Positions 13,699-48,167 are shown, counted from the stretch's first letter. The stretch is DNA of 64,000 nt from an uncultured Enterobacteriaceae bacterium (GCA_964509455.1 CAZDXS010000245.1:9392-73391); one strand, 5' to 3'. The notes: generated from the sequence alone by a model not told the origin. Program-made: numbers and translations.

Positions 13699-13717
13699 CC
13701 GGCAACGGTTGACGCCT

Positions 13718-17965: not shown

Positions 17966-18044
17966 TGCAAATACTCCGACGCGGCGCCGGGCGGGACGGC
18001 CGGCGGTTGTTTCATTCGCATGCCGCCGTGGTCTGGAGCGGGGC

Positions 18045-18518
18045 TCAGGCGGTCAGCAAGCGGTAAATCGTCTCTCCGGATTCTTCCTCCCTGAGCCGCG
18101 CTAAGAACGCCGCCTCGTTGAACCGCTCCGCCAGCTGCGACAGCACCTGCAAGTGCTCGTCGGCGGCATGTTCCGGCGCCAGCAATGCAAACAGCAGGTC
18201 CACCGGCCGCCGGTCCGCGGCGTCGTAATCCACGCCCTGCCGCAAGCGGATGAACGCGCCCACGGTGGAGTGGTTGTGCTTCAAGCGCCCGTGGGGCAAG
18301 GCGATGCCGTTGCCGAGGCCGGTGCCGCCCAGCCGCTCCCGGCTCAGCAGGCAGTCAAAAATCTCTTTTTCGCCCGCCCCGAAAGCGGCGCCGGCGAGCA
18401 GGCCGGACAGGGCTTCCAGGACCGCTTTTTTACTGGACAGCTCCACATCGCAGACCACGCGGTCCGGCGCCAGGATCTCCGCTATTTGCATTGCCGGGGT
18501 CGCGGCCTGGTTTCGCAA
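18045..18518 (-). CDS. ptsN: PTS IIA-like nitrogen regulatory protein PtsN
   Basis: 157 aa. RERLGGTGLGNGIALPHGRL is the EIIA-Ntr signature. The gene lies downstream of hpf. Confidence 0.92.
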   Translation of the reverse strand: MRNQAATPAMQIAEILAPDRVVCDVELSSKKAVLEALSGLLAGAAFGAGEKEIFDCLLSRERLGGTGLGNGIALPHGRLKHNHSTVGAFIRLRQGVDYDAADRRPVDLLFALLAPEHAADEHLQVLSQLAERFNEAAFLARLREEESGETIYRLLTA

Positions 18519-18528
18519 CGGGGCGCGG

Positions 18529-18822
18529 TCAGGGCCGGTGGTCCACCAGCTTTTCCTTGTGTTTTCTCACTTGCCGGTCCAGCCGGTCCATCATCTTGTC
18601 AATGGCCGCGTACATGTTGCCGTGCTCCGCCTCGGCAAACAGGTTGCCGCGGTTGACGTGAATGGTCGCCTCCGCCCGGTTGCGCTCCTTTTCAACGGAC
18701 AGCACCACGTGCGCGGTGGTGACGTGATCGAAGTGCCGTTCTATGCGTTGCATTTTCGTCTCGACGTAAGAACGCAACGCCGGAGTGATGTCAAGGTGAT
18801 GTCCCGCCAGGTTGATTTGCAT
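18529..18822 (-). CDS. hpf: ribosome hibernation promoting factor
   Basis: 97 aa. MQINLAGHHLDITPALRSYVETKMQRIERHFD matches the HPF/YfiA family. Confidence 0.92.
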   Translation of the reverse strand: MQINLAGHHLDITPALRSYVETKMQRIERHFDHVTTAHVVLSVEKERNRAEATIHVNRGNLFAEAEHGNMYAAIDKMMDRLDRQVRKHKEKLVDHRP

Positions 18823-18846
18823 GTCGTTTTTTCCGGTTGATGAGGT

Positions 18847-20307: not shown

Positions 20308-20358
20308 GCCGGCGGCGTAACGCAAAAAACGGCGCTCATCGGGCTTGGAAAGCGGCGC

Positions 20359-21084
20359 TCACAGCCTGAAATCGGATCCCAGGTAGATGTCCCTGACGGT
20401 TTCATCCGCCAGGATTTCATCCGGCGCACCCTCGATCAACACCTCCCCGTCGTGAACGATGTAGGCCCGGTCGCAGGCGCTCAGGGCCTCTCGCACGTTG
20501 TGGTCGGTGATCAGGATGCCTATGCCCTTGTCCCGCAGGTAGCTGGTGATGCGCTGAATGTCGCTGATGGAGATGGGGTCGATGCCGGCAAACGGCTCGT
20601 CCAGCAGCAAAAAGCGCGGCTGTATGGCCAGGGCGCGGGCGATCTCCACCCGTCGGCGCTCGCCGCCGGACAGGCTCATGCCCAGGCTGTCGCGCAGGTG
20701 CGAGACGTGAAACTCGTGCAACAGCGCCTCCATGCGCTCACGCGCCTCGCTCCGGTCCATGTTCTTGCGCAACTCCAGGATGGCCATGATGTTCTCCTCC
20801 ACGGTCAGCTTGCGAAAAATGGAGGACTCCTGGGGCAGGTAGCCAAGCCCCAGCCGCGCCCTTTTTTCCATGGGCAAAAAGCCGATTTCCCGGTCGTCCA
20901 GGTAGATCCTGCCCTTGTCGCAGGGAATCAGCCCGACAATGATGTGAAAACTGGTGGTCTTGCCCGCCCCGTTGGGGCCCAGCAACCCGGTAATCTCGCC
21001 GCTGTTGACGTCCAGGCTGAGGTTGCGAACCACCTGCCGGGAGCGATAGGTCTTGGATATGCTCCGGACAGATAAAATGCTCAT
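20359..21084 (-). CDS. lptB: LPS export ABC transporter ATP-binding protein
   Basis: 241 aa. It has Walker [10 protein letters not shown], signature LSGGERRR and Walker B LLLDEP. It follows lptA. Confidence 0.96.
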
Positions 21085-21620
21085 TCGTCCTGTTTATCCC
21101 TCTTGAATATCAGCTTCACGCGGCTGTCCTCCCCGCTGCCGGGCGTACTGGTGGCTTTCACCCGGCTGAGTTCCGTGTCGTACTCGATTCTCTCGCCCGC
21201 CAGGGTCGCCGTGCCCTCGCCTTTTTTTATCCAGGCCTCCCCGATCAGCACGATCAGGTTTTTCAGGTCGTGGAACTCCATTCGCAACGCCGCCGCCTGG
21301 TCGGGCGTCTCGCTGTCGTCCGGCAACTGCTGGTAGGTGGCGGGCTTGCCCTCCAGCACCATGAGCTCCAGCAGGTCGTCCCGGGTGCTGTGCACCGTCA
21401 TGCGCTCGCCGGTCATGCGAATGGATCCCTGCTTGACCACGATATTGCCCTGGTAGGTGCTGATTCGATTCGGCTCGTCCAGTTCCACCTCGTCCGCCTC
21501 CACTTCAATGGGCTGATTCTTGTCGGTGGAAAGGGCGAACGCCGGCAGGGCGAGCGCAAGACAGAGTGCGCCGGCGAGGGCGTCAGCTGCCGGGCGCGGC
21601 GTCAAAAACAGTTTTTTCAT
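21081..21620 (-). CDS. lptA: LPS transport periplasmic protein LptA
   Basis: 179 aa. It has a signal peptide and an OstA-like sequence ([45 protein letters not shown]). Confidence 0.9.
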
Positions 21621-22203
21621 GTTCGATAATCTCCAGTCTGTCTTGTGGAAGAAACGCGCGCAACCCGATGCCGGTGACGACGGTACCGCCTCTCACTATG
21701 GTTGCGCGTTGGTCCGTCTCGGCGTATTCCTCGTCCAGAAATATGCGCACATCCGCCGTGTCGACCTCCAGCACGGCCGCGCCCGCGTCGTCGTACTCCC
21801 GTATTTTCACCGGGCCGCTCAGTACTATGGTATCACTGTTTCCCCGGCGTCGTCCCTGTTCCGCGATGATGTACAGGGGCGGCTTGTCTTCCCGAAACAG
21901 CTCCACTTCCAGTTTCAACAGCTCCGTGATGTTCTCCTCCGGATAATGGGCCATGTAGGCCGCGGTCAGCCGGTTCCGGGGGCTGCCGTCCTGTTTCATT
22001 CTCAGGGTGGTGAAGTCCTCCATGTAATAATCCGGCAGGCGCCCCTGATGTTGCCTCGCGGCGGCCGGGTCGTCCGCCAGCCACGCCAGCAATCCCGCGC
22101 TGCCGGTCACCACCAGCAACAGGGCAAGCAACGCCAGGCGGCGCCCCGACAGGCCGTTGCTGCGCCGCGCCTGGATGCGCAATAACGCGCGCCACAATCT
22201 CAT
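21583..22203 (-). CDS. lptC: LPS export system protein LptC
   Basis: 206 aa with an N-terminal membrane anchor and an LptC-like beta-jellyroll sequence. It lies immediately upstream of lptA. Confidence 0.85.
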   Translation of the reverse strand: MRLWRALLRIQARRSNGLSGRRLALLALLLVVTGSAGLLAWLADDPAAARQHQGRLPDYYMEDFTTLRMKQDGSPRNRLTAAYMAHYPEENITELLKLEVELFREDKPPLYIIAEQGRRRGNSDTIVLSGPVKIREYDDAGAAVLEVDTADVRIFLDEEYAETDQRATIVRGGTVVTGIGLRAFLPQDRLEIIEHEKTVFDAAPGS

Positions 22204-22278
22204 CGCGCCGGCCCCGGGCTTTCAACAAGGCGCTGGGGCGGTTTTTGGGGCAGGTTGCCCGCGGCCCGGTTGCCGTCG

Positions 22279-25200
22279 TTACAGGTTGTCATTCATCCCC
22301 GACATTTTTGAGCGGATTTTCTGCGTCTCCACCGAGACGTGGATGACCTGGCGAAGCAGCCGTATCAACGCGGCCCGATGGTCTTGCCACTGGTAGGGGC
22401 ATTGCCGCAGCAGTTCCGTCACCTCGTCTGAATGATGTTTCCTCTCCTTCGGCCGCCCCTCATGCTGGTGCTCCGCCAGGGGCCAGAGCATGGCGGGGTC
22501 GCCCGACAACTGGTAGTCCCAGGCCGCTTGCGGAATGTTCCGAATCTCCGTTTTCGTATCGATGCGAATGATTTTTCCACCCGTCTTGCTGACGCCGACC
22601 CGGCAGATTTTCTCGGGCGGATCGGCGGCATGCCACCGCTTTGGTCCCACCACCTTGCAATGACGGTCCTCCGGACATTCATCGAAGCGGGTGTGCAACC
22701 GGGCCAGCGCTCTGCCCGCTTCCGCCCATTCCCGGAAACGGGGGTGCAAGGGCAACCGGGGCAGGGATACGCGCAGGTTCCCGGCGAAGCGCGTGGCGTA
22801 CTCCGGATCGTTCAGCACCGCGTACGCGTAATAAAAAATATCCTCCCGGGTGATGCGCTGTTGCTTATAGTGTGCGCGAAAGCGCTCTAAGGCGAGGTCC
22901 GTGATGTTCGAGCGCTTGTTGCCGTTCTCGTCATAGACGTAGAGAGGGATATATTGGGGGGAAGGCAACACTTCACCATCCGGCACTGTGTCGCTGAGCA
23001 AGGCATCAAACGGCTTCTTTTTACCGGGGGACGTAAAACCGATGACTAGGTTGTCGGAAGCTCCCCGTATACGGAGCGGAAAAATTTTTTTCAGCTGGTA
23101 AAGGCGATGAATAAGGCGGGGGCGATAATACAGTTGCTTGCGGGTGAACGGCCGCCACAGGACGGTGCGAATGGCCTGAGAATCGTAGGCAATTCCTCCA
23201 TCGTCCCCTGCCGCATACAACGCCAGTTCGGTGGTCCACTTGATATGCGGCTTGAAGAATTCTTTAATGAGCCTGTTACCGAAGCGGGTCAGGTCTTTGC
23301 GGTTTTCCGGCGTGTTCTGCAACGCCGGCGGCAACTCGTCACGGGAAGCATGGTATCGCCTGCGCTCCTCTTCATAAATGCTCACGAAACGCCGCACCTT
23401 GATTTCCAGCGCGGCGCGGCCCAGGTCCCACATCCAGTCATCTCGTCTTGTTGCGCTTCCCATGCTGTACAACGCAAATACGGGAATTTCTCCCACTTCT
23501 TGCCGGCCTTTCTCGTATTTCTGCTTGTATTCCTTGCTGACGGCGGGCATTGGCAACCTGTCAAAGCCCGTATCAGCCTGCGTTGGACACAGGGGGCCGC
23601 CCCCGTCCCGCTCAAGAGACGTCCAGCCAGGGGTGTTGTCCTTGTCATCCAACCACCTCAGCTTGGTCTCGGCGCTCTCTCCATGCAGGACGCAGTGGTA
23701 CATCACCCGGGCGTCGGTCCCGCCGGAGTCTTTCTTGATGGCGAATATCACCTGGCAACCAACCTTGTTGGGGAACACGTTCCCATCCGAAGCCCCTTCT
23801 CCTCCCAGATCAAGAATATACAGGGCAGTGCACTGCTCGCGCAGGTATTGCCGCAACGGCGCATCGGAAACGGAGTCCAGGAAACCGCGATTGGTAATCA
23901 GCGCAACCATTCCTTGCTCCCGGATCCTGTCCAAGGACCAGACAAGAAAACGCTTGTACTGGTCCGTGGAAGACGGCTTTTGCACCCCGCTGCCCCGGTA
24001 CATGTCCGTCAACCGGGCGTCCAGGGCCGGATAGCTGGCGTTCTCATTCATCTCCATTGCATTCTTCTGGGAGGCGCGCCAGGGCGGATTCCCGATGACC
24101 AGGGTGATGTCGGTGTCGCGCTGCTTGCGTACCCGCTTGGTGTTTTCTTTCGAGAACCCGCCGCCCTCCATCTCAACCTGTTCCCCTTCCCCGGTCAGGG
24201 GCAACGCCAGGGTGTCCTGGTAGCACAGGCCGGGAAACTGCTGGTCCGTCTCACCCCCCGTCAAGTTATACAACGTGCGCTGAACGGCCACGCAGGCGAC
24301 GTAGTACGCCAGGAGCGATACCTCGTTGGCCCACAAGGCGCCGCGCCCGTCCTTGCCTTGCCCGGCCGCCAGGTACTTGGCCTGCAGTTTTTTGCTCCCG
24401 CCCTTTTTTGCGGCAATATGCCGCATGACGGCCGTCACAAAAGTTCCCGTCCCCGTGGCCGGGTCCAGGATGGGAACCTGCGGCGATTCCAGCCCCTTGC
24501 CAAAATGCTCGCGCAGCAGCGAGTCCGAGGTGCGCACCATGAAGTTCACCACCTCCTGAGGGGTATAGACAATGCCCAGCTTATCGCCGGACTTCTTTGC
24601 ATAAGCCCAGTAGAACTGCTGATAGACGTCCTTCAGCAGTTGCTCCGCCTTGTCCGGATGTTTCTCGACGCTCTTGGCCAAATCATACAAGTCCGAGTAG
24701 TAAGCTTGCACTTTCTGGGTGAGGTTTCCCCACTCTCCTGGCCCTGCCAGCTGGTTCTGTAGAGAATCCAGCTCCTTGGCGATCGGGTTGGTTCGGTCCA
24801 TGTCCTGGCCGTACAGGGAGCGGAGAAACTCTCCAGTCAGCACGTGTTGGACCAACATTTCTGTTACTTCGCTCTCTCCTACTGCTCCCTTGCCGCCCAT
24901 CAACTGGGAAATTTCCGCGGCGGCCGTTTTTACCGCGGATTCTGATGCCTTTCGCAGGAATATACCGTTCAAGTTTGCGGCAATCCTTGGAATGTCTTCA
25001 CTCAACGTTGCCCATGCCTCCTTGAATTTCCTATCGATTTGCCCGGCGCGCGTGAAAAACTCCTCCAGTAGCTGAACGAAGCCTGCCGGCTCGCCAATCT
25101 CGGCTGTTTTCGGTTTTGGAGAATCCTTTCCGCCCCCAACGCTTCCCCCTTTTGGGGACTGATGCAAGCGAACCTCCGTGCCGGAATCTTCGAACAGCAT

Positions 25201-25638
25201 ATTGGACATTTCATACTCGTCCCTCTGCTTTTGCCTGACCTTATCCATAATCTTGCCGGGACAGCAGGCCTCCCACCAGCCGATCACCATTCCCAGGCCG
25301 CCCAGCGCCTTGACTTGCCCGTCAGGACGCTTGCCGGGCGACTGCTCCACCTCCTGAAAAAAACTGCACTTGTAGTGGGGAGCGAGCTCTATCATCAGTT
25401 GAGCAAATGCGTCCCGGCGGTCCACTTCCTTGGTCCTTCGGTCTTTCGTCAGCTCCAGCTGACGCTGGTAATAGGCCGCCAGGGCCGAGACAACAGTTTC
25501 GCGGTATTTACGGGTCTTGCCGCTGAGGCTGCCGCGCAAAGCAACCCGGAGCCTGGACTCCTCGTGATACCCGGCATTCTCGATTCTGGCAGCGACAGAA
25601 TCCAGGAGCCTGATAGTTTCTTTTTTTGTAGAACGCAT
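22279..25638 (-). CDS. large N6-adenine DNA methyltransferase-like protein, paralog A (PD-ExK-like N-terminus, gamma-class MTase, type ISP-like C-terminal specificity region)
   Basis: 1119 aa. Motif X GIVYTPQEVVNFMV, motif I ILDPATGTGTF and motif IV VIGNPPW are present. The C-terminus DIFYYAYAVLNDPEYATRFAGNLRVSLPRLPL...AGRALARLHTRFDE...VIHVSVETQKI resembles type ISP/IIG TRD-C regions. The N-terminus reads RPDG-x16-WWEAC. Confidence 0.85.
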   Translation of the reverse strand: MRSTKKETIRLLDSVAARIENAGYHEESRLRVALRGSLSGKTRKYRETVVSALAAYYQRQLELTKDRRTKEVDRRDAFAQLMIELAPHYKCSFFQEVEQSPGKRPDGQVKALGGLGMVIGWWEACCPGKIMDKVRQKQRDEYEMSNMLFEDSGTEVRLHQSPKGGSVGGGKDSPKPKTAEIGEPAGFVQLLEEFFTRAGQIDRKFKEAWATLSEDIPRIAANLNGIFLRKASESAVKTAAAEISQLMGGKGAVGESEVTEMLVQHVLTGEFLRSLYGQDMDRTNPIAKELDSLQNQLAGPGEWGNLTQKVQAYYSDLYDLAKSVEKHPDKAEQLLKDVYQQFYWAYAKKSGDKLGIVYTPQEVVNFMVRTSDSLLREHFGKGLESPQVPILDPATGTGTFVTAVMRHIAAKKGGSKKLQAKYLAAGQGKDGRGALWANEVSLLAYYVACVAVQRTLYNLTGGETDQQFPGLCYQDTLALPLTGEGEQVEMEGGGFSKENTKRVRKQRDTDITLVIGNPPWRASQKNAMEMNENASYPALDARLTDMYRGSGVQKPSSTDQYKRFLVWSLDRIREQGMVALITNRGFLDSVSDAPLRQYLREQCTALYILDLGGEGASDGNVFPNKVGCQVIFAIKKDSGGTDARVMYHCVLHGESAETKLRWLDDKDNTPGWTSLERDGGGPLCPTQADTGFDRLPMPAVSKEYKQKYEKGRQEVGEIPVFALYSMGSATRRDDWMWDLGRAALEIKVRRFVSIYEEERRRYHASRDELPPALQNTPENRKDLTRFGNRLIKEFFKPHIKWTTELALYAAGDDGGIAYDSQAIRTVLWRPFTRKQLYYRPRLIHRLYQLKKIFPLRIRGASDNLVIGFTSPGKKKPFDALLSDTVPDGEVLPSPQYIPLYVYDENGNKRSNITDLALERFRAHYKQQRITREDIFYYAYAVLNDPEYATRFAGNLRVSLPRLPLHPRFREWAEAGRALARLHTRFDECPEDRHCKVVGPKRWHAADPPEKICRVGVSKTGGKIIRIDTKTEIRNIPQAAWDYQLSGDPAMLWPLAEHQHEGRPKERKHHSDEVTELLRQCPYQWQDHRAALIRLLRQVIHVSVETQKIRSKMSGMNDNL

Positions 25639-25853: not shown

Positions 25854-28800
25854 TTACAGGTTGTCATTCATGCCGGACATTTTTGAGCGGATTTTCTGCG
25901 TCTCCACCGAGACGTGGATGACCTGGCGAAGCAGCCGTATCAACGCGGCCCGATGGTCTTGCCACTGGTAGGGGCATTGCCGCAACAGTTCCGTCACCTC
26001 GGACGAGCGATGTTGCCGCGCTTTCGGGCGCCCCTCATGCTGGTGCTCCGCCAGCGGCCAGAGCATGGCGGGGCGACCCGCCAACTGGTAGTCCCAGGCC
26101 GCTTGCGGAATGTTCCGAATCTCCGTTTTCGTATCGATGCGAATGATTTTTCCGCCCGTCTTGCTGACGCCGACCCGGCAGATTTTCTCGGGCGGGTCGG
26201 CGGCATGCCACCGCTTTGGTCCCGCCACTTCGCAATGACGGTCCTCCGGACATTCATCGAAGCGGGTGTGCAACCGGGCCAGCGCTCTGCCCGCCTCCGC
26301 CCATTCCCGGAAACGGGGGTGCAAGGGCAACCGCGGCAGGGCAACGCGCAGGTCCCCGGCGAAGCGCGTTGCGTACTCCGGATCGTTCAGCACCGCATAC
26401 GCATAGTAGAAGACGTCCTCTTGGGTGATGCGCGGCCGCTGGTAGTGCGCGCGAAAGCGCTCCAAGGCGAGGTCCGTGATGTTCGAGCGCTTTTTGCCGT
26501 GCTCGTCATAGACGTAAAGAGGGATATATTGGGCGAAAGGCAGGAAATGATGGTCCGGCACCGCGTTGCTGAGCAATGCGCCAAACGACCTCTTTTTACC
26601 GGGGGACGTAAAACCAATGACCAGGTTGTCGGAACCCCCTTGCCTGTCGAACGGGAAGATGCTTCCCATCTGGTAGGGGCGGTGAAGCAAGACGGGCCGG
26701 TAATACAGTTGCTTGCGGGTGAACGGCCGCCACAGGGCGGTGCGAATCGCCCGGGAGTCGCAGGCAAGCGTCCCGTCCTCCCTTGTTGCGTACGGCGCCA
26801 GTTCGGTGGTCCACTTGATGCGCTGGTCGAAAAATTCTTTCATCAGCCGGTGGCCGAAGCGGGTCAGGCTTTTGCGATTTTCCGGCGTGTTTTGCAACGC
26901 CGGCGGCAACTCGTCATGGGAAGCATGGTATCGCCTGCGCTCCTCTTCATAAATGCTCACGAAGCGCCGCACCTTGATTTCCAGCGCGGCGCGGCCCAGG
27001 TCCCACATCCAGTCATCCCGGTTTGATTTGCTCCCCATGCTGTACGACGCAAACACGGGGACTTCTCCCGCCTCCTGCCGGCCCTGCTTGTATTCCTTGC
27101 TGACGGCGGGCATCGGCAACCTGTCAAAGCCCGTAGCGGCAGGGGTTGGACACAGGGGGCCGCCCCCGTCCTGTTCAAGAGACGTCCAGCCGGGGGTGTT
27201 TTTCCCGTTGTCCAACCACCTCAGCTTGGTCTCGGCGCTCTCTCCATGCAGGACGCGATGGTACATCGCCCGGGCGCCGGGTGCGCCGGAGTCTTTCTTG
27301 ATGGCGAAAATCACCTGGCAACCGGTCTTGTTGCCGGAGAACACGTTGCCGTCCGCAGACCCGTTCAACCCGTCGCCGCCCAGATCAAGAATATACAGGG
27401 CAGTGCACTGCTCGCGCAGGTATTGCCGCAACGGCGCATCGGAAACGGAGTCCAGGAAACCGCGGTTGGTGATCAGCGCGACCAGCCCCTGCTTCTGGAC
27501 CCGGTCCAGGGACCAAACAAGAAAACGCTTGTACTGGTCCGTGGAAGACGGCTTTTGCACCCCGCTGCCCTGGTACATGTCCGTCAACCGGGCGTCCAGG
27601 GCCGGATAGCTGGCGTTCTCATTCATCTCCATGGCATTCTTCTGGGAGGCGCGCCAGGGCGGATTCCCGATGACCAGAGTGATGTCGGTGTCGCGTTGCC
27701 GGCGCACCCGCTTGGTGTTCTCTTTTGAGAACCCGTTGCCTTCCAACTCAACCTGCTCCCCTTCCCCGGTCAGGGGCAACGCCAGGGTGTCCTGGTAACA
27801 CAGGCCGGGAAACTGCTGGTCCGTCTCGTACTCCCCGCCCTCCGTCAGGTTGTACAGGGTGCGCTGAACGGCCACGCAGGCGACGTAGTACGCCAGGAGC
27901 GACACCTCGTTGGCCCACAGGGCGCCGCGCCCGTCCTTGCCGTGCCCGGCCGCCAGGTACTTGGCCTGCAGTTTTTTGCTCCCGCCTCTTTTTGCGGCAA
28001 TATGCCGCATGACGGCCGTTACGAAAGTTCCCGTCCCCGCGGCCGGGTCCAGGATGGGAACCTGCGGCGATTCCAGCCCCTTGCCGAAATGCTCGCGCAA
28101 CAGCGAGTCCGAGGTGCGCACCATGAAGTTCACCACCTCCCGGGGGGTATAGACAATGCCCAGCCTGTCGCCGGACTTCCTGCCGTAAGCCCAGTAGAAC
28201 TGCTGATAGACGTCTTTCAGCAACTGCTCCGCCTGGTCCGGATAATCCTCGACGCTCCGCGCCAATCCTTGCAGGCCGGAGTAGTAGTCCCGCACTTTCC
28301 GGGTGAGGTTCCCCCACTCCCGCGGCCCCGCCAGCTGGTTCTGCAGGGCGTTCAACTCCCTGGCGATCGGGTTGGTGCGGTCGATGTCCTGGCCGTACAG
28401 GGAGCGGAGGAACTCCCCGGTCAGCACGTGCTGGACCAGCATGTCGGTCACTTCCTGTCCGCTCACGGCGCCCTCGCCGCCCATCAACCGGGAGATTTCC
28501 ACGGCGGCCGCCTGTACCGCGGCCGCCGCCTCTTGCTGTTGGAAGATGCTGTTCAGGCTTGCGGCGATTTCTGGTATTTCTTTTTCCAGCGCCGACCAGG
28601 CCTCCTTGAATTTCCTGTCGATTTGCCCGGCGCGGGTGAAGAAGCGATCCAGCAACCCGATGAACTGCGCCGGGTCGTCAATCCCGACGCGTTCTTGCTG
28701 CGGGGGCGCCGCGCCGTCCGCCTGGCACAGGCAGGCCTGCGTGCCGCAATCCTCGAACAGCATGTTGGACATTTCGTACTCGTCCGCCTGTTTTTGCCTG

Positions 28801-29222
28801 ATCTTGTCCGCAATCCTGCCGGGACGGCAGGCCTCCCACCAGCCGATGACCATTCCCAGGCCGCCCAGCGCCTTGACCTGTCCGTCCGGGCGTTTGCCGG
28901 GCGACTGCTCCTGCTCTGGAATGAACCCGCACTTGTAGAGGGGGGCGAGCGCTCTCATCAGGCCAACGAATGCGTCGCGGCGGTCCAACTCTCCCGTGAC
29001 GCGGCTCTTCGTCAGCTCCAACTGACGCTGGTAATAGGCCGCCAGGGCCGAGACGACGACCCCGCGATGGTTACGGGTCTTGCCGCTGAGTCTGCCGCGC
29101 AAGGCGTCCCCGAGCCTGGACTCCTCGTGATACCCGGCCGCCCTGATCCTGGCAGCGACAGAATCCAGGCGCTTGATGGTTTCCTGGTTCGCAGAACGCA
29201 TGGCTGGATAGGTTGACGTCAA
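25854..29222 (-). CDS. large N6-adenine DNA methyltransferase-like protein, paralog B
   Basis: 1122 aa, collinear with paralog A and roughly 80-90 percent identical by eye, with the same motifs (DPAAGTGTF, VIGNPPW). By alignment with A the start may be ATG 29201 (MRSANQETIKRLD). Confidence 0.85.
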   Translation of the reverse strand: MTSTYPAMRSANQETIKRLDSVAARIRAAGYHEESRLGDALRGRLSGKTRNHRGVVVSALAAYYQRQLELTKSRVTGELDRRDAFVGLMRALAPLYKCGFIPEQEQSPGKRPDGQVKALGGLGMVIGWWEACRPGRIADKIRQKQADEYEMSNMLFEDCGTQACLCQADGAAPPQQERVGIDDPAQFIGLLDRFFTRAGQIDRKFKEAWSALEKEIPEIAASLNSIFQQQEAAAAVQAAAVEISRLMGGEGAVSGQEVTDMLVQHVLTGEFLRSLYGQDIDRTNPIARELNALQNQLAGPREWGNLTRKVRDYYSGLQGLARSVEDYPDQAEQLLKDVYQQFYWAYGRKSGDRLGIVYTPREVVNFMVRTSDSLLREHFGKGLESPQVPILDPAAGTGTFVTAVMRHIAAKRGGSKKLQAKYLAAGHGKDGRGALWANEVSLLAYYVACVAVQRTLYNLTEGGEYETDQQFPGLCYQDTLALPLTGEGEQVELEGNGFSKENTKRVRRQRDTDITLVIGNPPWRASQKNAMEMNENASYPALDARLTDMYQGSGVQKPSSTDQYKRFLVWSLDRVQKQGLVALITNRGFLDSVSDAPLRQYLREQCTALYILDLGGDGLNGSADGNVFSGNKTGCQVIFAIKKDSGAPGARAMYHRVLHGESAETKLRWLDNGKNTPGWTSLEQDGGGPLCPTPAATGFDRLPMPAVSKEYKQGRQEAGEVPVFASYSMGSKSNRDDWMWDLGRAALEIKVRRFVSIYEEERRRYHASHDELPPALQNTPENRKSLTRFGHRLMKEFFDQRIKWTTELAPYATREDGTLACDSRAIRTALWRPFTRKQLYYRPVLLHRPYQMGSIFPFDRQGGSDNLVIGFTSPGKKRSFGALLSNAVPDHHFLPFAQYIPLYVYDEHGKKRSNITDLALERFRAHYQRPRITQEDVFYYAYAVLNDPEYATRFAGDLRVALPRLPLHPRFREWAEAGRALARLHTRFDECPEDRHCEVAGPKRWHAADPPEKICRVGVSKTGGKIIRIDTKTEIRNIPQAAWDYQLAGRPAMLWPLAEHQHEGRPKARQHRSSEVTELLRQCPYQWQDHRAALIRLLRQVIHVSVETQKIRSKMSGMNDNL

Positions 29223-40182: not shown

Positions 40183-41235
40183 TCATCCGCTCCGGAAAGT
40201 TTGCTCGAACAGGTCTTTTTCCACAACCCGCCCCGCCGGCGCGGGCATGCCGAAATGCTCCCAGGCGTTCCTGGTGGCGACGCGGCCGCGAGGGGTGCGC
40301 ATCACAAAACCCTGCTGTATCAGGTACGGCTCGATAACATCCTCTATGGTGTCTTTTTCTTCGCCCACGGCGGCGGCAATATTGTCCAGCCCCACGGGGC
40401 CGCCGTCAAATTTTTCGATGATGGCCAGCAGCAACCGGCGATCCATGGCGTCGAAGCCGTGCTCGTCCACTTTCATCATGTCCAGGGCCTGGGCGGCGAG
40501 CTTTGCGCTGACCCTGCCGTCCGCCCGAACCTCGCTGTAATCGCGGACGCGGCGCAACAGGCGGTTGGCGATGCGCGGCGTGCCCCGGGCGCGCACGGCG
40601 ATTTCCCGGGCGCCCGCCGCATCGATGGGCGTCTTCAATATTTGCGCCGAGCGGGCGACAATGTCCGCCAGGTCGTCCGCCGAGTAAAACTCCAGCCGTT
40701 GCACGATGCCGAAGCGGTCCCGCAACGGCGAGGTCAACATGCCGGCCCGGGTGGTGGCGCCCACCAAGGTGAAACCCGGCACGTCCAGCTTGATGGCGCG
40801 CGCCGCCGGGCCTTCGCCAATCATGATGTCGATCTGGTAGTCCTCCATGGCCGGGTAGAGGATCTCCTCCACGACCGGGCTCAGGCGATGTATCTCGTCA
40901 ACAAACAACACGGCCCTTGGCTCTAAGTTGGTGAGCAAGGCCGCCAGGTCGCCGGGGCGCTCTAACACCGGGCCCGAGGTCTGCGCCAGGGGTACGCCCA
41001 GCTCGTTGGCGATTACGTGCGCCAGGGTTGTCTTGCCGAGGCCGGGCGGGCCGAAGATCAGCACGTGATCCAGGGCTTCCTCCCGCCGGCGAGCGGCGCT
41101 GATGAAAATCTCCATCTGCTCATGCACTGCCGGTTGCCCCCGGTATTCCGCCAGCGAGCGGGGCCTCAGGCTGTTCTCGGCCAAGGCGTCCTCTTCCGAC
41201 CTGTCGGCGGAGATGACCGGGTCGGGCGCGTTCAT
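40183..41235 (-). CDS. ruvB: Holliday junction branch migration ATPase RuvB
   Basis: [23 protein letters not shown], Walker [12 protein letters not shown] and FVDEIHRL match RuvB. Confidence 0.97.
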
Positions 41236-41554
41236 GTCGTCAGGGGGCGTAGCATGGGAACCGTCGGCGCAATTGGATCATTCTACAATCCAGGGCGCGG
41301 CGATGCAAGCCGCTGTGCCGGGCCGCTGGCATGCAACGCCTGGGGCGGGGACGAGCCCGGATCGGAGCGAAAGCGGACAACGGCGGGCGGCGGGGGCCTT
41401 ATCCCCGGCGCCGTGGTTGGCGCGGCGACGGCGGGCAGGAGAGACCGCGGGCCCGGCAAGCGCCGCACATCGCCTCGCGCAACCGCCCCGGCGCCCGGGC
41501 GGACGAATAACCGGCGCGGGAATAACGGACAGGCGTTGCGGGGCAGGGTATCAG

Positions 41555-44500
41555 CTAGGCGGTAACCAGGGTTACGTCCGGGTCCACGATGAAGCTGCCG
41601 GCAACGCCGGCGTACTGCTCGTAGTCCTCGCCGGCCACAGCCACGTCATCTCCCCGGGTGAAATCGTCCAGGTCGAAACGCAGAGTGTCATCGCTGTCGC
41701 CGTCGATGCGAAGCTGATAGTTGCCGTCGCCGTCCGCCAGCACCGCCAGGGCCTCAGTAGATAGGGTCAGGTCCGTGTTGCCGGCGCCTGCGCCCGCCAG
41801 GTCGATTTGCGGCACGCCCGCCAGCAGGGTCGCATCAACGGGAAGAAGCGCATTGGCTTGACCTGTCGACACCGCGGTCTGCAACTCGGACGCGACAGCA
41901 AGATCGGCAGAGTACGCAAAACCGTCCAGGGCGCCGGGGCCGGTTCGGCTCCAGCCGGACGCCAACGGCGCTCCATTCCCACCATGGAAAGTCACCGTGT
42001 AAGCGGGCCCATCGCCAAGGAGCGTTATCGTGTGTACGACCAGGTTGCCGGCGGCGCCCCACTGCCCGTGGAACTCCAGCCGGTCCAGCATGCCGTCGTT
42101 GTCGCTGTCGCGGCCCACCCAGTCCGGGCTGCCGTTGGCGTCGTGGTCATAGTGGTGTTCGTCGATGGCGCCGTCCCCGTCCTCATCAACACTGGAGCGT
42201 TCCACGATGCCGTCATCGCCTTCATCAAAGTCGGTGCGCACCACGGCGCCGGCCGCGTTGCGCGTGTAGGTCTCGGAGCGAATGGCAACATCGTCTCCCA
42301 GATCGTCCAACATGGAATCGAACGGAGTGCGCGCGCCTGCCTCGTCAGCGGCGCCGGTTTCCTTGCCGGCAACGCCCCGCGCACCAGGAGCGCCCGCGGC
42401 AGAGCGTCCCAGGCTGTTGCCGCTCCCACCCTCGATTCCAGGCTCCTCGGCAGGGGCGTCGCCCTCGCCGCCCACCGCCATCACTTTCTTGATCAGGTTC
42501 CCGTGGGCGTCGTAGGAGTAGGTCTCGATGCGATCCAACGTGCCGTCGCCCTCGTCATCGAACGCGGCCCGGTCGATGACCCCGTCCACGTTGTCATCGT
42601 AGTACGTGCCAATAACGGCGCCGGCGGTGTTCCACGCATAGACTTCCACGCGGTCCACGGTGTTGTCCGCATCGTCGTCAAAATCCGCGCGGATGATGCG
42701 GCCGTTGACGTCCCGCACGTAGGACTCAATACGGTCCACGGTGTTGTTCGCATCGTCGTCAAACCCGGTGCGGAGGCTGTTGCCCTGGTCGTCCCGCTCG
42801 TAGTAGGTCTCGATGCGGTCCAGGACCCCGTCCCCGTTCGGGTCAAAATGGGTGCGATCCACCCGGCCGTTGCCGTTGTCGTCGTAGTCGGTGCGAATGA
42901 TGATATTGGCGCCGTTCCGCGCATACGCCACGGTGCGCTCCGGGGCGCCGTCGGCATTGGCATCGAAGACGGTGCGGTCAATATAGCCGTTCGCATCGTC
43001 ATCGACGTCTGTGCGAATAACCTGACCCTGGCCGTTCCGCACATAGACTTCAACGCGGTCCGTCGTCCCGTCCGCGTCATCGTCAAAATCAGTGCGCAAA
43101 ATATTGCCGTTGGGATACCGCAGGTAGCTTTCCGTACGATCCACCGCGCCGTCGGCGTCGTCATCGAAGTCAGTGCGCTGAATACGGCCATTGGGGAACC
43201 GCGCGTAGGCCTCGGTGCGCTCCACAGTGCCGTCCGCATTGGCGTCAAAGTGGGCGCGATCCGCCCGGTCATCCAAATCGTCATCGAAGTCGGTCTGGAT
43301 GATGTCGCCGCCGGCGTTCCGCACGTAGGCCTCGGCGCGCTCCACTGTACCGTCCTCGTCCGCATCAACCCTGGCGCGGTCGGCATTGCCATCGCCGTCG
43401 TCATCGTACTCGATGCGCTCGGCCGTGCCGTTTTCGTTGGCGTCAAACTCCACCCGGTCCACCGTGCCGTCATCGTCCGCATCCACCTCGGTGCGCTCCG
43501 CCGCGCCGTCGGCGTCCGCGTCAAACTCGCGCCGGTCGACGATGCCGTCGGCGTCGCTGTCAACATCGGTCTGGATGACGTCCCCGGCGCTGTTTCGCAC
43601 ATACGTCTCGATGCGATCCAGCGTGCTGTCCGCGTTGTCGTCAAAGGCGGTGCGGGCAATGCGACCGGCGCCGTCCAGCGTGTAAGACTCGATGCGCTCG
43701 GCCGTGCCGTCGGCGTCATCATCAAACTCGGTACGGATGATGCGCCCGTTGCCGTCCCGCCCATAGGTCTCGATGCGCTCGGCCGTGCCGTCCGCGTCAT
43801 TGTCAAACTCGGTGCGGGTGATGCGCCCATGGCCGTCCCGCCCGTAGGTCTCGATGCGGTCCGCCGTGCCGTCATCGTTCGCATCAAACTCCACCCGGTC
43901 TGCCGTGCAGTCATCGTCCGCATCCACTTCGGTGCGCTCCGCCGTACCGTCCGCGTCCGCGTCAAACTCGCGGCGGTTGACGATACCGTCGGCATCGCTG
44001 TCAACACCGGTCTCAATGGCGTCGCCGTCGCTGTTCCGCACATACGTCTCGATGCGGTCCGCCGTGCCGTCCGCATCGTCATCGAAAGCAGTGCGGGTGA
44101 TGCGGCCGTCGACGCCCCGCGTGTGGGACTCGATGCGGTCCACCGTACCGTCGGCGTCCGGGTCAAAATGGTCGCGGTCAATATGGCCGTCCGCATCGTC
44201 ATCGAAGCGGGTGCGAATGATTTCCTTGGCGCCGTTCCGCAGGTAGTTTTCAGCGCGCTCAAACGTGCCGTCGCCGTCCGAGTCGAAGAATATCCAGTCA
44301 ATATGACCATCTTGATCCGTATCGACCTCGATGTCGGCAGATTGCGTGGCGACCCCGGACTGTTGCGGCGGCGCGGCATTCCCGGGGTCTTGCTCCTGCG
44401 GCTCGATGCGGTCCACCGTGCCGTCCGCGTCGTCATCGTACTCGGTGCGCGTCACCTGCCCGGCGGTATTGCGCGTATAGAACTCGATGCGATCAACGGC

Positions 44501-45346
44501 GCCGTCGGCATTGTCATCGAAGTCGGTGCGCTCCACCTGCCCGGCGGTATTGCGCGTATGATGCTCGATGCGCTCGCTGATCCCGTCATCGTTGTCATCG
44601 AACACCACCCTGACCAGGCGACCCTGCCCATCGTAAGCGTATATCTCCAGCCCCTCCGCAACACCGTCCGCATCGCCGTCAACCGCCGCCCGGGACGGCA
44701 ACCCGGCCGCATTGAAAAAGTTGTAGCGCAGGATCCTATCCGCCGTTCCATCGGCGTCGCTGTCCGTGGAGAGACGGACTACGCGCCCTTGGGCATCGTA
44801 GCCGTACTGTTCGATTCGATCCGCGGCGAACGCGGTCCCGTCGTAATCGTCATCGAACTGCACTTCAATCCGTTGCCCCACGTCCGCCTGGGAAATAGCG
44901 CCGGCATTGGCCTGCGCCTGGGCGCCATAGACATAGCGCTCCACACGGTCTACTGTGCCGTCCGCATTGTCGTCAAAGTCGGTGCGGACGATGCGGCTGT
45001 CGGCATCCTGCGTGTGTACCTCGGGGGGATTGACGGCATCGCTACCAGCATCGCCGGAACCTCCGGAATCATCAGAGCTTCCGGTGTCGCCGGAACTTCC
45101 CGTCTCATCGGGAACAGCGGGAGGTGCGTCAAAAAACCCGGGGGACAGCGTAGAAAGCAAGTCCAAGCTCGAGTAATAGCGATAGATCACATCTTCGTAT
45201 GTCACCTCCGAGGGAAAGATCTCGGGAAACAGCCAAAAAGCATCGGGCGTATAAACAGCGGGATCATAATGATCGTAAAAACGGGACGCCAGCCCAGCGC
45301 TTCCGTCCGGGATCAAGAAATCTCTTGTGTTCATTTCAGTCGTCAT
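41555..45346 (-). CDS. giant secreted-type repeat protein (~41 D-x-D-x-D-G calcium-loop/YD-like repeats; T1SS-like C-terminus)
   Basis: ORF 41555..45361 has a GTG start. ATG 45346 gives MTTEMNTRDFL. The ~28-30-aa unit DDDADGTVDRIETYxRxxxGxIxRTxF repeats throughout. The C-terminus is acidic and Gly-rich and ends DPDVTLVTA. Confidence 0.8.
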   Translation of the reverse strand: MTTEMNTRDFLIPDGSAGLASRFYDHYDPAVYTPDAFWLFPEIFPSEVTYEDVIYRYYSSLDLLSTLSPGFFDAPPAVPDETGSSGDTGSSDDSGGSGDAGSDAVNPPEVHTQDADSRIVRTDFDDNADGTVDRVERYVYGAQAQANAGAISQADVGQRIEVQFDDDYDGTAFAADRIEQYGYDAQGRVVRLSTDSDADGTADRILRYNFFNAAGLPSRAAVDGDADGVAEGLEIYAYDGQGRLVRVVFDDNDDGISERIEHHTRNTAGQVERTDFDDNADGAVDRIEFYTRNTAGQVTRTEYDDDADGTVDRIEPQEQDPGNAAPPQQSGVATQSADIEVDTDQDGHIDWIFFDSDGDGTFERAENYLRNGAKEIIRTRFDDDADGHIDRDHFDPDADGTVDRIESHTRGVDGRITRTAFDDDADGTADRIETYVRNSDGDAIETGVDSDADGIVNRREFDADADGTAERTEVDADDDCTADRVEFDANDDGTADRIETYGRDGHGRITRTEFDNDADGTAERIETYGRDGNGRIIRTEFDDDADGTAERIESYTLDGAGRIARTAFDDNADSTLDRIETYVRNSAGDVIQTDVDSDADGIVDRREFDADADGAAERTEVDADDDGTVDRVEFDANENGTAERIEYDDDGDGNADRARVDADEDGTVERAEAYVRNAGGDIIQTDFDDDLDDRADRAHFDANADGTVERTEAYARFPNGRIQRTDFDDDADGAVDRTESYLRYPNGNILRTDFDDDADGTTDRVEVYVRNGQGQVIRTDVDDDANGYIDRTVFDANADGAPERTVAYARNGANIIIRTDYDDNGNGRVDRTHFDPNGDGVLDRIETYYERDDQGNSLRTGFDDDANNTVDRIESYVRDVNGRIIRADFDDDADNTVDRVEVYAWNTAGAVIGTYYDDNVDGVIDRAAFDDEGDGTLDRIETYSYDAHGNLIKKVMAVGGEGDAPAEEPGIEGGSGNSLGRSAAGAPGARGVAGKETGAADEAGARTPFDSMLDDLGDDVAIRSETYTRNAAGAVVRTDFDEGDDGIVERSSVDEDGDGAIDEHHYDHDANGSPDWVGRDSDNDGMLDRLEFHGQWGAAGNLVVHTITLLGDGPAYTVTFHGGNGAPLASGWSRTGPGALDGFAYSADLAVASELQTAVSTGQANALLPVDATLLAGVPQIDLAGAGAGNTDLTLSTEALAVLADGDGNYQLRIDGDSDDTLRFDLDDFTRGDDVAVAGEDYEQYAGVAGSFIVDPDVTLVTA

Positions 45347-45606
45347 AAGTACCTCAGCCACGGCTCAATCAGTACGCCGGCCAGGATGTGTGACACTCGC
45401 ATTATGGCAAAAGTTCAAACAATTGTCAAGCGTGCGCGGGTTCATTACGCATTGAAATCCGGGAGTTGCTCAAGCAACGCTCGGGCCTAAGGACTCTTTT
45501 GTGTTCGTTTCAGTCGTCATAAGTACCTCCACTACAGCTCAATTAGCACGCCAGCCAAGACGTGTGACACCCGCATTATGGCAAAAGTTCAAACGGTCGT
45601 CAAGGA
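45322..45606. repeat. ~110-bp direct repeat at 174-bp offset covering the start codon and upstream region of the giant gene
   Basis: ttcagtcgtcataagtacctc occurs at 45335 and 45509. cattatggcaaaagttcaaac occurs at ~45400 and ~45574. Confidence 0.88.
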
Positions 45607-45813
45607 ATATGCACCGGCTCGCAACATACAACGTTTGGGGAGGGCGGGCAAGGCCTTGCATGGGTTCATATCATATTGGAATCCGGTAGTTAATCAAGTA
45701 GTGCCTGAGGCCGGGGACTTCAATCCCCGGCATCTGGGCGGGAGAGCTGGGTGGAGGGCGCACCAGGCAGGCAGGCGCGGGTAGGCAGCCGCGGCCGTGG
45801 GCAGACGCCACGG

Positions 45814-46419
45814 TCAGGCGACCGCCGCTTTCAGGGCGGCGCGGATCAAGTCCTCGCTGCTCATGCCCTCCCCCGCCGCACCGCGCACCAGGCGGCCGGC
45901 TTCCCTGGGGTTGTAGCCCAGGGCCACCAGGGCGGCGATGGCTTCGTTGACCGGCGCCGCTGCGCTCGTTGCGGGGGCGGCGCCCTTCCCGCCGGCGGCA
46001 GGCTCTGCCGCTGGGCGGTCTTTCAGGCGGTCGCTCATCTCCACGAGCAGGCGCTCCGCCATCTTCTTGCCGACGCCCGGCAGGCGGGTGAGACGCGCCG
46101 CGTTGCCGGTTTCTATGCATTGCACGAACTCGTCGGCGCCGATGCCGGACAGTATCGCCAGCGCTGTCTTGGCGCCTACGCCGCTGACCTTGATCAGGGC
46201 GCGAAACACGTAGCGCTCGTCCCCGGAGGCGAAACCGTACAGCAAGTGGGCGTCGTCCCGCACCACCAGGTGCGTCAACAGCTCAACCTCCTCGCCGGCG
46301 GGCGGCAGGACGTAAAACGTGTTCATGGACGCTTCCAGTTCGTACCCCACGCCTTGCACGTCCAGGGTCAGCGTCGGCGGTTGGCGGGCGATGATCCTGC
46401 CGCGCAGAAACCCGATCAT
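45814..46419 (-). CDS. ruvA: Holliday junction DNA helicase subunit RuvA
   Basis: 201 aa from MIGFLRGRIIARQPPTLTLDVQGVGYELEASMNTFY. The HhH motifs are LIKVSGVGAKTALAILS and LPGVGKKMAERL. Confidence 0.95.
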   Translation of the reverse strand: MIGFLRGRIIARQPPTLTLDVQGVGYELEASMNTFYVLPPAGEEVELLTHLVVRDDAHLLYGFASGDERYVFRALIKVSGVGAKTALAILSGIGADEFVQCIETGNAARLTRLPGVGKKMAERLLVEMSDRLKDRPAAEPAAGGKGAAPATSAAAPVNEAIAALVALGYNPREAGRLVRGAAGEGMSSEDLIRAALKAAVA

Positions 46420-46888
46420 GGCCGCAGCGCCGGGGTCTGCGGCTGGACGAGCGCCAGGGGGCGCCGCGAATGACCGCAGCGCAGGGCAACGTCCAGGGCC
46501 GGCGGCGGTTGGCGGGTGATGATCCTGCCGCGCAGAAACCCGATCATGGCCGCAACGCCGAGGTCTGCGGCCGGCCGGGCGCCGGGGGGCGCCGCGAATG
46601 ACCGCAACGCAGGGCAACGTCCAAGGCCGGCGTCGGCGGTTGGCGGGCGATGAGCCTGCCGCGCAGAAATCCGATCATGGTCGCGGCGCCGGGGTCTGCG
46701 GCTGGACGGGCGCCAGGGGGCGCCGCGAATGACCGCAATGCAGGGCAACGTCCAGGGTCAGCGTCGGCGGTTGGCGGGCGATGATCCTGCCGCGCAGGAA
46801 TCCGATCATGGTCGCCGCGCCAAGGTCTGCGGCTGGACGGGCGCCAGGGGGCGCCGCGAATGGCCGTGACACAGGGCAACGGCCAGGG
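46358..46888. repeat. tandem array, 4 units (128/131/131/131 bp), of the ruvC-stop/ruvA-start junction
   Basis: ATG copies are at 46419 (real ruvA), 46547, 46678 and 46809. Boundary motifs are ACGTCCAGGG (ruvA side, 46358) and ACGGCCAGGG (ruvC side, 46879). Confidence 0.92.
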
Positions 46889-47378
46889 CGTCGGCGGCAT
46901 CCTCCTGGGGCGGCTCCGCCAGGCACAGCAGGACCTTGACCATGTACTGCACCTGGGTTTTCTGCGCGTGTCCCTTGCCCACGGCAGCCTGCTTGACCTG
47001 GTTCGCCGTGTACTCAAAAACCGGCAGGCGCAGTTCGGCGCAGGCGGTGACGGCGGCGCCGCGGGCTTGCCCCAGCTTCAGCGCGGAATCGGCATTGCGG
47101 TACATGAATATTTTTTCGACGGCGGCCTCGGCCGGGCGGAATTCGCGTATTACTCCGGCAATTTCATGGAAAATTCGCCCTAGGCGCTCCGCCAGGGCTT
47201 CTCCTTGCACCGCGACGTGACCGTGGGTCACGTGCACGGCGTGATTGCCGGCAATGTCAATGACGCCGTACCCCGTTTGGCGAAAGCCCGGGTCAATCCC
47301 CAGGATGCGCACCACAGGCGCGGCGCCGGCCCGAGGCCGCGCCGGCGGCCGCTCAGTCCGGGCGGCGCCGGGCGTCAT
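46806..47378 (-). CDS. ruvC: crossover junction endodeoxyribonuclease RuvC
   Basis: RILGIDPGFRQTGYGVIDIAG...KIFMYRNADSALKLGQARG...DAADALAVALCHGH matches RuvC. The true start may be downstream of ATG 47378. Confidence 0.92.
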   Translation of the reverse strand: MTPGAARTERPPARPRAGAAPVVRILGIDPGFRQTGYGVIDIAGNHAVHVTHGHVAVQGEALAERLGRIFHEIAGVIREFRPAEAAVEKIFMYRNADSALKLGQARGAAVTACAELRLPVFEYTANQVKQAAVGKGHAQKTQVQYMVKVLLCLAEPPQEDAADALAVALCHGHSRRPLAPVQPQTLARRP

Positions 47379-47420
47379 GCATCCGGTCCCGGATCGCGGC
47401 GGCGCACGGCAACGCCCGGC

Positions 47421-48167
47421 TTACTCCATCTGGGCGAGAACCGCATCGGGGATTTCCGCGTTGGAATACACTTTCTGCACGTCGTTCAGGTCCTCCAGGG
47501 CCCCCAGCAGGCGCACCATGGTCTGGGCGCCGGACAGGTCCAGGGCGACGCCGCTGGCCGCGCGCATCGTCACTTCCGCCGTCTCGGGCGCGTAACCGGC
47601 CTTGAGCAGCGCGTCTTTCACGCGGACGAAATCATCCGGCGCCGTGAGCACGTCCAGGGAGCCGTCCTCGTTGCTCACCACGTCATCCGCCCCGGCTTCC
47701 AGGGCCGCCTCCAGCAGGGCGTCCTCCTCAACGCCGGGCGCACAGGCAAACAGGCCCACCTTGGTGAACAGGTAGGAGACCGAGCCGTCGGTGCCCAGGT
47801 TGCCGCCGTAACGGGTGAGGACATGACGCACCTCCGCCACGGTGCGGTTGCGGTTGTCGGTCAGACAATCCACCATGACGGCGACGCCGTTGGGGCCGTA
47901 GCCCTCGTAGCGCGCTTCTTCCAGGTTTTCGCCCTCGCCGCCGCCGGCGCCGCGCTTGACGGCGCGTTCAATGGCGTCCTTGGGCACGTTGCTGGAAAGG
48001 GCGTGATCCACCGCGGTGCGCAGGCGGGGATTGCCGTCGGGATCGGCGCCGCCCAGGCGCGCCGCCACCGTGAGTTCGCGGATCAGCCTGCTGAACAGGC
48101 GCCCGCGCTTGGCGTCCTGGCGCCCCTTGCGGTGCTGAATGTTCGCCCACTTGCTGTGTCCCGCCAT
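47421..48167 (-). CDS. YebC/PmpR-family DNA-binding transcriptional regulator
   Basis: [40 protein letters not shown] is the canonical YebC N-terminus. Confidence 0.95.

Follow-up and report, generated by a model that had tools for sequence, protein, structure and literature searches.

What is a gene for a large repeat protein doing between ruvA and ruvB, and how did it come to lie there? We addressed this question in a stretch of 64,000 nucleotides from an uncultured Enterobacteriaceae bacterium (GCA_964509455.1 CAZDXS010000245.1:9392-73391), referred to here as the window, in which the minus-strand gene order is tolB, tolA, tolR, tolQ, ruvB, a 3.8-kb open reading frame (ORF), ruvA, ruvC, yebC, and nadA. 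From our analysis, we estimate at roughly 60% the probability that the product of the 3.8-kb ORF is a structural protein, secreted or located at the cell surface as an adhesin or a matrix component, that would be exported in the style of type I secretion and folded by calcium. We infer its metal binding, secretion route, calcium-triggered folding, and adhesive or structural role from sequence comparison and structure prediction. The genes at the locus are as follows.

40183-41235, minus strand: ruvB, on the same strand as the repeat gene
41555-45346, minus strand: coding sequence of the repeat protein (1263 amino acids [aa] plus stop, 136 kDa, pI 4.05)
45814-46419, minus strand: ruvA, on the same strand as the repeat gene
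46806-47378, minus strand: ruvC

The repeat array and its predicted fold

The minus strand is taken as the coding strand because of the codon-position GC content of the repeat ORF (0.70/0.45/0.76) and because its homologues are up to 75% identical. An antisense ORF of 1227 aa (41807-45490, plus strand) was rejected as a shadow ORF; homologues give it no support, its codon-position GC is wrong, and it arises from the Asp/Gly/Thr-rich codon repeats of the repeat gene. The longest ORF of the gene begins with a GTG (41555-45361, minus strand, 1268 aa). Nevertheless, the ATG at 45346 is likely the start, because a GAGGT Shine-Dalgarno (SD) sequence lies 5 nt upstream and the SD-ATG block is kept in an upstream duplicate, which bears out the start given in the initial annotation. 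No Rfam match was found in 41000-47500. The predicted protein contains 303 Asp and Glu against 105 Lys and Arg residues, with only four Lys and a single Cys.

Most conspicuous in this protein is a regular series of 12-residue loops with the consensus D-[DAS]-[DN]-A-[DN]-G-T-[VAI]-[DE]-R-[ITV]-E. We found 35 loops of the strict form D.[DN].[DN]G and 38 of a relaxed form; with three degenerate loops recognized by eye the total is about 41, the number that had earlier been counted by eye. Shuffling of the protein (2000 shuffles) yielded 1.16 ± 1.08 strict motifs, with a maximum of 6, as against the 35 observed. Across 40 loops, position 1 is Asp in all 40, position 3 is Asp or Asn in 38, position 5 is Asp or Asn in all 40, position 6 is Gly in 35, position 9 is Asp or Glu in 39, and position 12 is Glu in 28, and the consensus fits the ligand positions 1, 3, 5, 6, 9, and 12 of EF-hand loops. 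The spacing from loop to loop is 13 aa in 12 cases and 27 aa in 11. A long unit of 27 aa, F-DxDxDGTxDRIE-xY-xRxxxG-xIxRT-x, combines a loop with a YD-type β-hairpin, and a short unit of 13 aa combines a loop with one strand. The same two periods dominate the homologue set as a whole (13 aa 708 times, 27 aa 468 times). A super-repeat, previously described as about 150 aa long and occurring twice, is present with an offset of 147 aa and 72.5% identity over 120 aa (~43400-44170). In some relatives, the array consists nearly entirely of 13-aa short units, with 27 consecutive loops in one of them (P0043, residues 460-876). From the N-terminus to the C-terminus, the segments of the window protein are as follows.

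45092-45346, minus strand: orphan, non-repetitive N-terminal ~85 aa (codon-position GC 0.52/0.45/0.55)
45038-45091, minus strand: Ser/Gly/Asp-rich linker (read directly)
42518-45013, minus strand: main array, ~36 calcium-type loops in long and short units, with one Pro/Gln-rich interruption and the super-repeat
42287-42517, minus strand: Gly/Ala/Glu/Pro-rich linker, predicted to be disordered (predicted local distance difference test score [pLDDT] ~30 in the full-length model)
42074-42286, minus strand: second small array, one long unit and four short loops
41828-42073, minus strand: pre-terminal ~82-aa region (EFHGQWG...ELQTAVSTG), conserved in the closest relatives only
41558-41827, minus strand: terminal ~88-aa module (LLAGVPQIDLAGAGAGNTDL...FIVDPDVTLVTA), rare

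Windows of four long units each, 39 in number and all in register, were drawn from the window protein and homologues to build an alignment (A4), with which AlphaFold2 modelled four 27-aa units (residues 492-599) at a pLDDT of 96.8 and a predicted template modelling score (pTM) of 0.81. The model has eight strands arranged as four hairpins and no helices, and the DxDxDG segments form 8-residue connections between the hairpins. Compared with the PDB using Foldseek, its top 29 matches were Rhs effectors of the type VI secretion system (T6SS), teneurins, Tc toxin B/C proteins, and the Rhs-like SGS1, with template modelling (TM) scores of 0.66-0.71 and root-mean-square deviations of 3.0-3.4 Å over about 100 columns. 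The units of the window protein score 15.5 bits with RHS_repeat (PF05593, cut-off 22); those of the homologue P0005 pass the cut-offs of both RHS_repeat (23.3 bits) and TIGR01643 (23.7 bits, cut-off 15.8), and the hairpins of alphaproteobacterial homologues read YTYDxxGR. Because of the hairpin model, its Rhs, teneurin, and Tc matches, and the homologues that pass the RHS cut-offs, the long unit is predicted with high confidence to be a YD repeat in which the turn between hairpins has become an EF-hand-type loop. The YD-like strands proposed in the initial annotation are well supported by these results.

Its description of the loops as EF-hand-like holds in part. The 12-residue pattern is real and over-represented, but the loops are flanked by β-strands, the full PROSITE pattern PS00018 is fitted by only six of them, and the Pfam model EF-hand_1 reaches 15.8 bits on a short-unit fragment against a gathering threshold of 25.4, with no EF-hand match (PF00036/PF13499) on the whole protein. 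A helix-loop-helix EF-hand is ruled out by the strands that flank every loop in the four-unit model. Scans of the whole protein with Pfam and NCBIfam yielded no model at cut-off, only DUF6426 and LanM below threshold, so the repeat family is indeed one that annotation does not recognize.

The terminal module and the proposed route of export

The terminal ~88-aa module has no sequence match in Pfam, NCBIfam, or the PDB; those PDB matches that the C-terminal profiles did return (a designed repeat protein and a weak EF-hand/LanM match) were judged spurious. A profile of the module, searched against 1.84 billion cluster representatives, found 323 at E ≤ 1e-3 and 58 at E ≤ 1e-10. A copy lies at most 12 aa from the C-terminus in 107 of 179 carriers (median length 1323 aa, maximum 7309 aa), and by a crude test a signal-peptide-like N-terminus was seen in 2 of 107 large module carriers. 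Thirteen carriers were scanned with Pfam: nine contained RTX nonapeptide repeats above the Pfam threshold, in most cases alongside FG-GAP, three the prefix domain BapA_N, and one only FG-GAP. The N-terminus of the window protein, MTTEMNTRDFLIPDGSAG, has no hydrophobic signal-peptide-like stretch when read from the sequence. The co-occurrence of the module with RTX and BapA_N, together with the missing signal peptide and the acidity of the protein, points to export in the style of type I secretion.

Accordingly worded as a mechanism, the body of the protein would be a long ribbon of YD/Rhs-type β-hairpins in which the calcium-type loops Dx[DN]xDG-T-x-[DE]-R-x-E serve as the turns between hairpins. 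Where calcium is scarce, as in the cytoplasm, the ~40 acidic loops would prevent the 136-kDa chain from folding and leave it competent for export, and a route in the style of type I secretion, requiring no Sec signal peptide, would recognize the C-terminal ~88-aa module. Outside the cell, binding of Ca2+ would close the loops and make the hairpin ribbon fold up as a stiff rod or sheet of strongly negative charge, and the array would take the role that the RTX β-roll has in classical type I substrates. RTX repeats are described as a hallmark of type I substrates, with calcium-driven folding after export, in passages of three papers (PMC3034196, PMC6891781, PMC4642704), and a passage of a fourth describes adhesin stalks that are rigidified by Ca2+ (PMC7493085).

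Several observations weigh against this interpretation. The resemblance of the C-terminus to a type I secretion target, suggested in the initial annotation, stands insofar as the module ends RTX and BapA_N proteins elsewhere, which is indirect evidence; the specific likeness to TIGR03661 does not, since the NCBIfam model matches neither the protein nor its terminus, and a terminal domain of that type was rejected. That RTX proteins end in this module is an association, which does not prove a function. The module also occurs internally in relatives, in up to five copies in P0055, and because of such internal repeated copies it appears to be a domain with a fold of its own rather than just a signal. 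No GGxGxD nonapeptides were detected, either as a GG.G.D match or as a PF00353 match. Genes for an ATP-binding cassette (ABC) transporter, a membrane fusion protein (MFP), or TolC are missing among those coding-like ORFs of the window that are at least 345 aa long, which agrees with the initial annotation, and no type I secretion genes lie beside the two alphaproteobacterial homologue loci that we inspected. The AlphaFold model of the full length (residues 106-1268, from an alignment of 15 rows) reaches a pLDDT of only 50.6 and a pTM of 0.30. Finally, loop positions 9 and 12 would face opposite sides in a regular β-strand, so Glu12 may not ligate metal.

Both the arrays of short units and the ~88-aa module appear, from sequence comparison, to be autonomous building blocks. 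As a separate observation, 4-5 internal copies of the module were seen in P0055 and P0035.

Arrival between ruvA and ruvB

The closest relative of this locus is a Logan contig (L029) whose RuvA is 96% identical to that of the window. In L029, yebC-ruvC-ruvA-ruvB-tolQRAB are contiguous and the ruvA-ruvB spacer is 223 bp; in the relatives L030 and L031, with 73% RuvA identity, the spacer is 28 bp. This check of the spacing substantiates the initial claim that ruvA and ruvB are normally adjacent and are split here. The features of the split are as follows.

41453-45790: insertion relative to L029, 4338 bp (blastn breakpoints 45791 and 41452, junctions read directly)
45791-45802, minus strand: left 12-bp imperfect direct repeat GCCCACGGCCGC (11/12 against the single L029 copy)
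41441-41452, minus strand: right 12-bp direct repeat GCCCGCGGTCTC (10/12 against the single L029 copy)
45575-45603, minus strand: distal duplicate promoter, TTGACG, 17-nt spacer, CATAAT (10/12)
45401-45429, minus strand: proximal sigma-70-type promoter, TTGACA, 17-nt spacer, TG-n-CATAAT (11/12, extended -10)
45308-45604, minus strand: tandem duplication of promoter, 5' untranslated region, and first ~10 codons (two 123-nt copies, 84% identical, 174-nt spacing)
41280-41308, minus strand: promoter-like TTGCAT-17-TAGAAT before ruvB, outside the insertion (by eye, under the scan threshold)

The insertion comprises the entire gene with 444 bp of DNA upstream of it and a 3' flank of 102 bp, and contains neither a transposase nor an integrase. 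Its upstream part has a GC of 0.547 against 0.66 for the whole window, in keeping with the ~450 bp of lower-GC sequence noted at the outset. At the insertion point, L029 has one copy of the 12-bp sequence (GCCCGCGGCCGC, 3238-3249); the direct repeat in the window could be a target duplication or microhomology. On sequence comparison, the insertion appears to be strain-specific and a recent arrival, and the locus offers a clean natural example of a recent insertion that separates ruvA from ruvB.

The site may have been permissive. The promoter-like sequence before ruvB is conserved at the same place in L029 (~3400-3430, TTGCAT-17-TAAAAT), and the 223-bp spacer predates the insertion in this lineage, which together suggest that ruvB has its own promoter. 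The insertion brings promoters as well. Its distal promoter is followed by copies of the SD sequence, the ATG, and about 10 codons, giving a 16-codon ORF (MTTETNTKESLGPSVA) that could be a leader peptide or a mere remnant of the duplication. After the stop codon of the repeat gene there is no significant terminator hairpin (z = +1.5), and read-through from the repeat gene into ruvB is therefore plausible. A strong foreign promoter aimed into ruvB without a terminator could change the expression of a core recombination gene.

A second tandem duplication lies outside the insertion. A 131-bp tandem repeat (4.1 copies, 89% matches, 46358-46889) spans the junction of the ruvC stop and the ruvA start, where it encodes the RuvA N-terminus MIGFLRGRIIARQPP and the RuvC C-terminus HGHSRRPLAPVQPQT about four times each; of these copies, the full genes take just one each, the first end of ruvC and the last start of ruvA. 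The ruvC/ruvA junction of L029 has a single copy of the 131-bp unit, with the genes overlapping normally.

To which proteins, then, is the repeat protein related? The array family gave 89 matches at E ≤ 1e-5 among 5.8 billion proteins, the strongest of which fall into two groups. The first comprises six proteins found only at NCBI (P0001, P0002, P0003, P0008, P0009, and P0015), on contigs of 33-73 kb, which may be paralogues in the same genome or in a sister genome. The second consists of many paralogues in a few alphaproteobacterial metagenome-assembled genomes (MAGs; Litorimonas, Hyphomicrobiales), in which FG-GAP propellers and terminal modules come after an N-terminal array. A search of genome contigs found 28 loci in four alphaproteobacterial MAGs, the genome of the window not being among them, and scans of JGI metagenomes with terminal-module patterns and a promoter 23-mer found nothing. 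The alphaproteobacterial genes that we inspected (L032, L033) are single or paired among housekeeping genes and sometimes lie beside insertion sequence (IS) fragments. Their neighbours include genes of biotin synthesis, mreBCD, and pyrimidine synthesis. In the Litorimonas MAG (L032; 1674-2123, 6858-7517, 15005-15768), the homologues are flanked by transposase fragments, and L033 carries two tandem paralogues of 1600 and 2489 aa (10001-22845).

The closest homologue, P0001 (1661 aa), runs colinear with the window protein, at 75% identity, from residue ~234 up to the C-terminus. The disordered linker is 78% identical to the matching P0001 segment, and identity to P0001-P0003 is 79-82% over the last 173 aa. 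P0001 starts with ~590 aa of FG-GAP/VCBS repeats (FG-GAP_3 130 bits, FG-GAP 74 bits), for which the window protein has no Pfam match (PF01839/PF13517). In their place stands a non-repetitive N-terminus of ~85 aa, followed by the Ser/Gly/Asp linker much as first described (~100 aa); this N-terminus has no homologue among the 5.8 billion proteins, and its codons have a third-position GC (GC3) of 0.55 against 0.76-0.81 in the array, lacking the GC3 bias of the genome. Judged from these comparisons, the window protein looks like a 5'-truncated, head-less derivative with a new, orphan, low-GC N-terminus. The missing propeller may mean that a binding function was lost, which likewise counts against the favoured interpretation.

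Could the gene then be a decaying remnant, the duplicated 3' part of the gene for an FG-GAP-propeller adhesin that has lost its functional head and persists as a functionless or tolerated ORF? The replacement of the propeller by 85 codons with neither GC3 bias nor homologue would fit such decay, instability of the locus is suggested by the tandem duplications that affect the promoter region and the ruvC/ruvA junction, and the gene is absent from the relative with 96% RuvA identity. Nevertheless, we regard this explanation as unlikely. The frame is intact for 3.8 kb, 80% of the residues are conserved with P0001 in aligned columns, identity to P0001 is 82% in the C-terminal 173 aa, and a strong extended -10 promoter is combined with a good Shine-Dalgarno sequence. 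Moreover, the alphaproteobacterial relatives show array and propeller as separable modules in variable order.

Under the reading of a functional, calcium-folded exoprotein, the gene would encode a 5'-truncated relative of propeller-carrying proteins, having come as a 4.3-kb insertion with its own duplicated sigma-70 promoter. A wider proposal, which we make only tentatively and believe somewhat less than we doubt, is that this calcium-loop YD ribbon represents a context for metal sites in its own right, substitutes for the RTX β-roll as the driver of calcium-triggered folding in a rare class of type-I-style exoproteins marked by the terminal module, and spreads as stand-alone, promoter-carrying cassettes into housekeeping loci such as ruvA-ruvB. 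The array family and the terminal module are very rare and currently invisible to annotation.

Elsewhere in the window, two adjacent genes for proteins of ~1120 aa (22279-25638 and 25854-29222, both minus strand) have features of Type ISP restriction-modification systems, with N6_Mtase, Eco57I, and Type_ISP_C in both and ISP_coupler in one. The surrounding stretch has a lower GC (0.54-0.62) and may be a defence islet.

Comparison with known systems

The hairpin fold raises the question of whether the protein is an encapsulation shell of the Rhs/YD type, that is, a polymorphic toxin or a Tc-like cocoon delivered by a T6SS or by other means. All top structural matches of the long units are shells of Rhs, teneurin, or Tc proteins, and the ~830 aa of hairpin repeats are comparable in length to an Rhs shell. 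We consider such a shell very improbable all the same: Pfam, NCBIfam, and motif searches found no Rhs-associated core, DPxG[LW] motif, PAAR, VgrG, or toxin domain in the protein, no immunity, T6SS, or Tc gene lies nearby, the interspersed 13-aa single-strand units and the two disordered linkers break the sheet, and a terminal module and a negative charge this extreme are more in keeping with RTX/BapA proteins. The identity of an Rhs toxin was rejected, the core and the DPxGL motif being missing. Just as hard to credit is a metal sequestrator, a high-capacity Ca2+ buffer or lanmodulin-like lanthanide binder in place of a structural adhesin: the sole NCBIfam match is lanmodulin (LanM, 35.1 bits, in six stretches), the loops agree with the LanM loop in Thr7, a hydrophobic residue at position 8, Asp9, and Glu12, and ~40 sites per chain would mean a very high capacity, but the LanM score is far under the cut-off of 135 (NF053806), Pro at loop position 2, a hallmark of LanM loops, occurs in only 2 of 40 loops, the loops sit in β-hairpins and not in a helix-loop-helix, and no methanol/lanthanide (xoxF-type) genes occur among the scanned ORFs of the window.

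The structural exoprotein that we favour is best placed by its likeness to several known systems. With YD/RHS proteins (PF05593, TIGR01643), it shares long units that form successive antiparallel β-hairpins and superpose on YD shells, and its homologues keep the YxYDxxGR signature. It differs from them by the 12-residue Dx[DN]xDG turn loops and the 13-aa single-strand units, by the lack of a plug as well as of the core, motif, and toxin mentioned above, and by unit scores that stay below threshold; its terminal module and acidity belong with type I exoproteins. With RTX and Bap-type adhesins (PF00353; BapA_N, PF22783), it has in common a large, acidic, Cys-poor chain with no signal peptide, tens of Asp/Gly calcium-type sites, and the same terminal module. 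Unlike them, it has no GGxGxDxUx nonapeptides, β-roll, TIGR03661 domain, or linked ABC/MFP/TolC genes, and its calcium-type sites sit on YD hairpins instead.

Thrombospondin type 3 (TSP3) repeats are tandem DxDxDG loops with two alternating unit lengths, one of which is 13 residues. The window protein resembles them (PF02412/PF18884) in its tandem loops and two unit lengths, and distant homologue matches carry PF02412. However, it has no disulfide cysteines (1 Cys in 1263 aa) and no Pfam TSP_3 match, and its loops are spaced by β-strands and hairpins and do not form a 'wire' around calcium. From EF-hand proteins and lanmodulin it differs in that its loops are not helix-loop-helix and the EF-hand and LanM models remain below threshold.

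The loops also correspond to calcium sites of the Dx[DN]xDG type, as surveyed by Rigden et al. (2011, PMC3123361), with the same linear motif, ligand-type residues at positions 1, 3, 5, 9, and 12, and Gly at position 6. Since the words 'hairpin' and 'Rhs' are absent from the text of this survey of Dx[DN]xDG contexts, a YD or β-hairpin-ribbon context does not figure in it, and in the literature we found no paper that joins the DxDxDG motif with YD repeats. FG-GAP 'calcium blades' (ADLDGDGDLDLVVG) are present in the same polypeptide in paralogue-type relatives.

In essence, the components of this protein are known, namely YD hairpins, Dx[DN]xDG loops, and giant acidic exoproteins linked to type I secretion; the regular 13/27-aa fusion and the terminal module are not in Pfam or NCBIfam. 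A regular array with ~40 putative metal sites per chain would be an attractive scaffold for cooperative metal-induced folding or metal capture, and calcium-binding peptides are mentioned in one paper as being under evaluation for rare-earth separations (PMC12152738). If our reading is true, the catalogue of Dx[DN]xDG sites would gain a new structural context, and calcium-driven folding of type I substrates would be possible not only on the RTX β-roll but also on the YD hairpin sheet, a fold so far familiar from toxin cocoons and teneurins.

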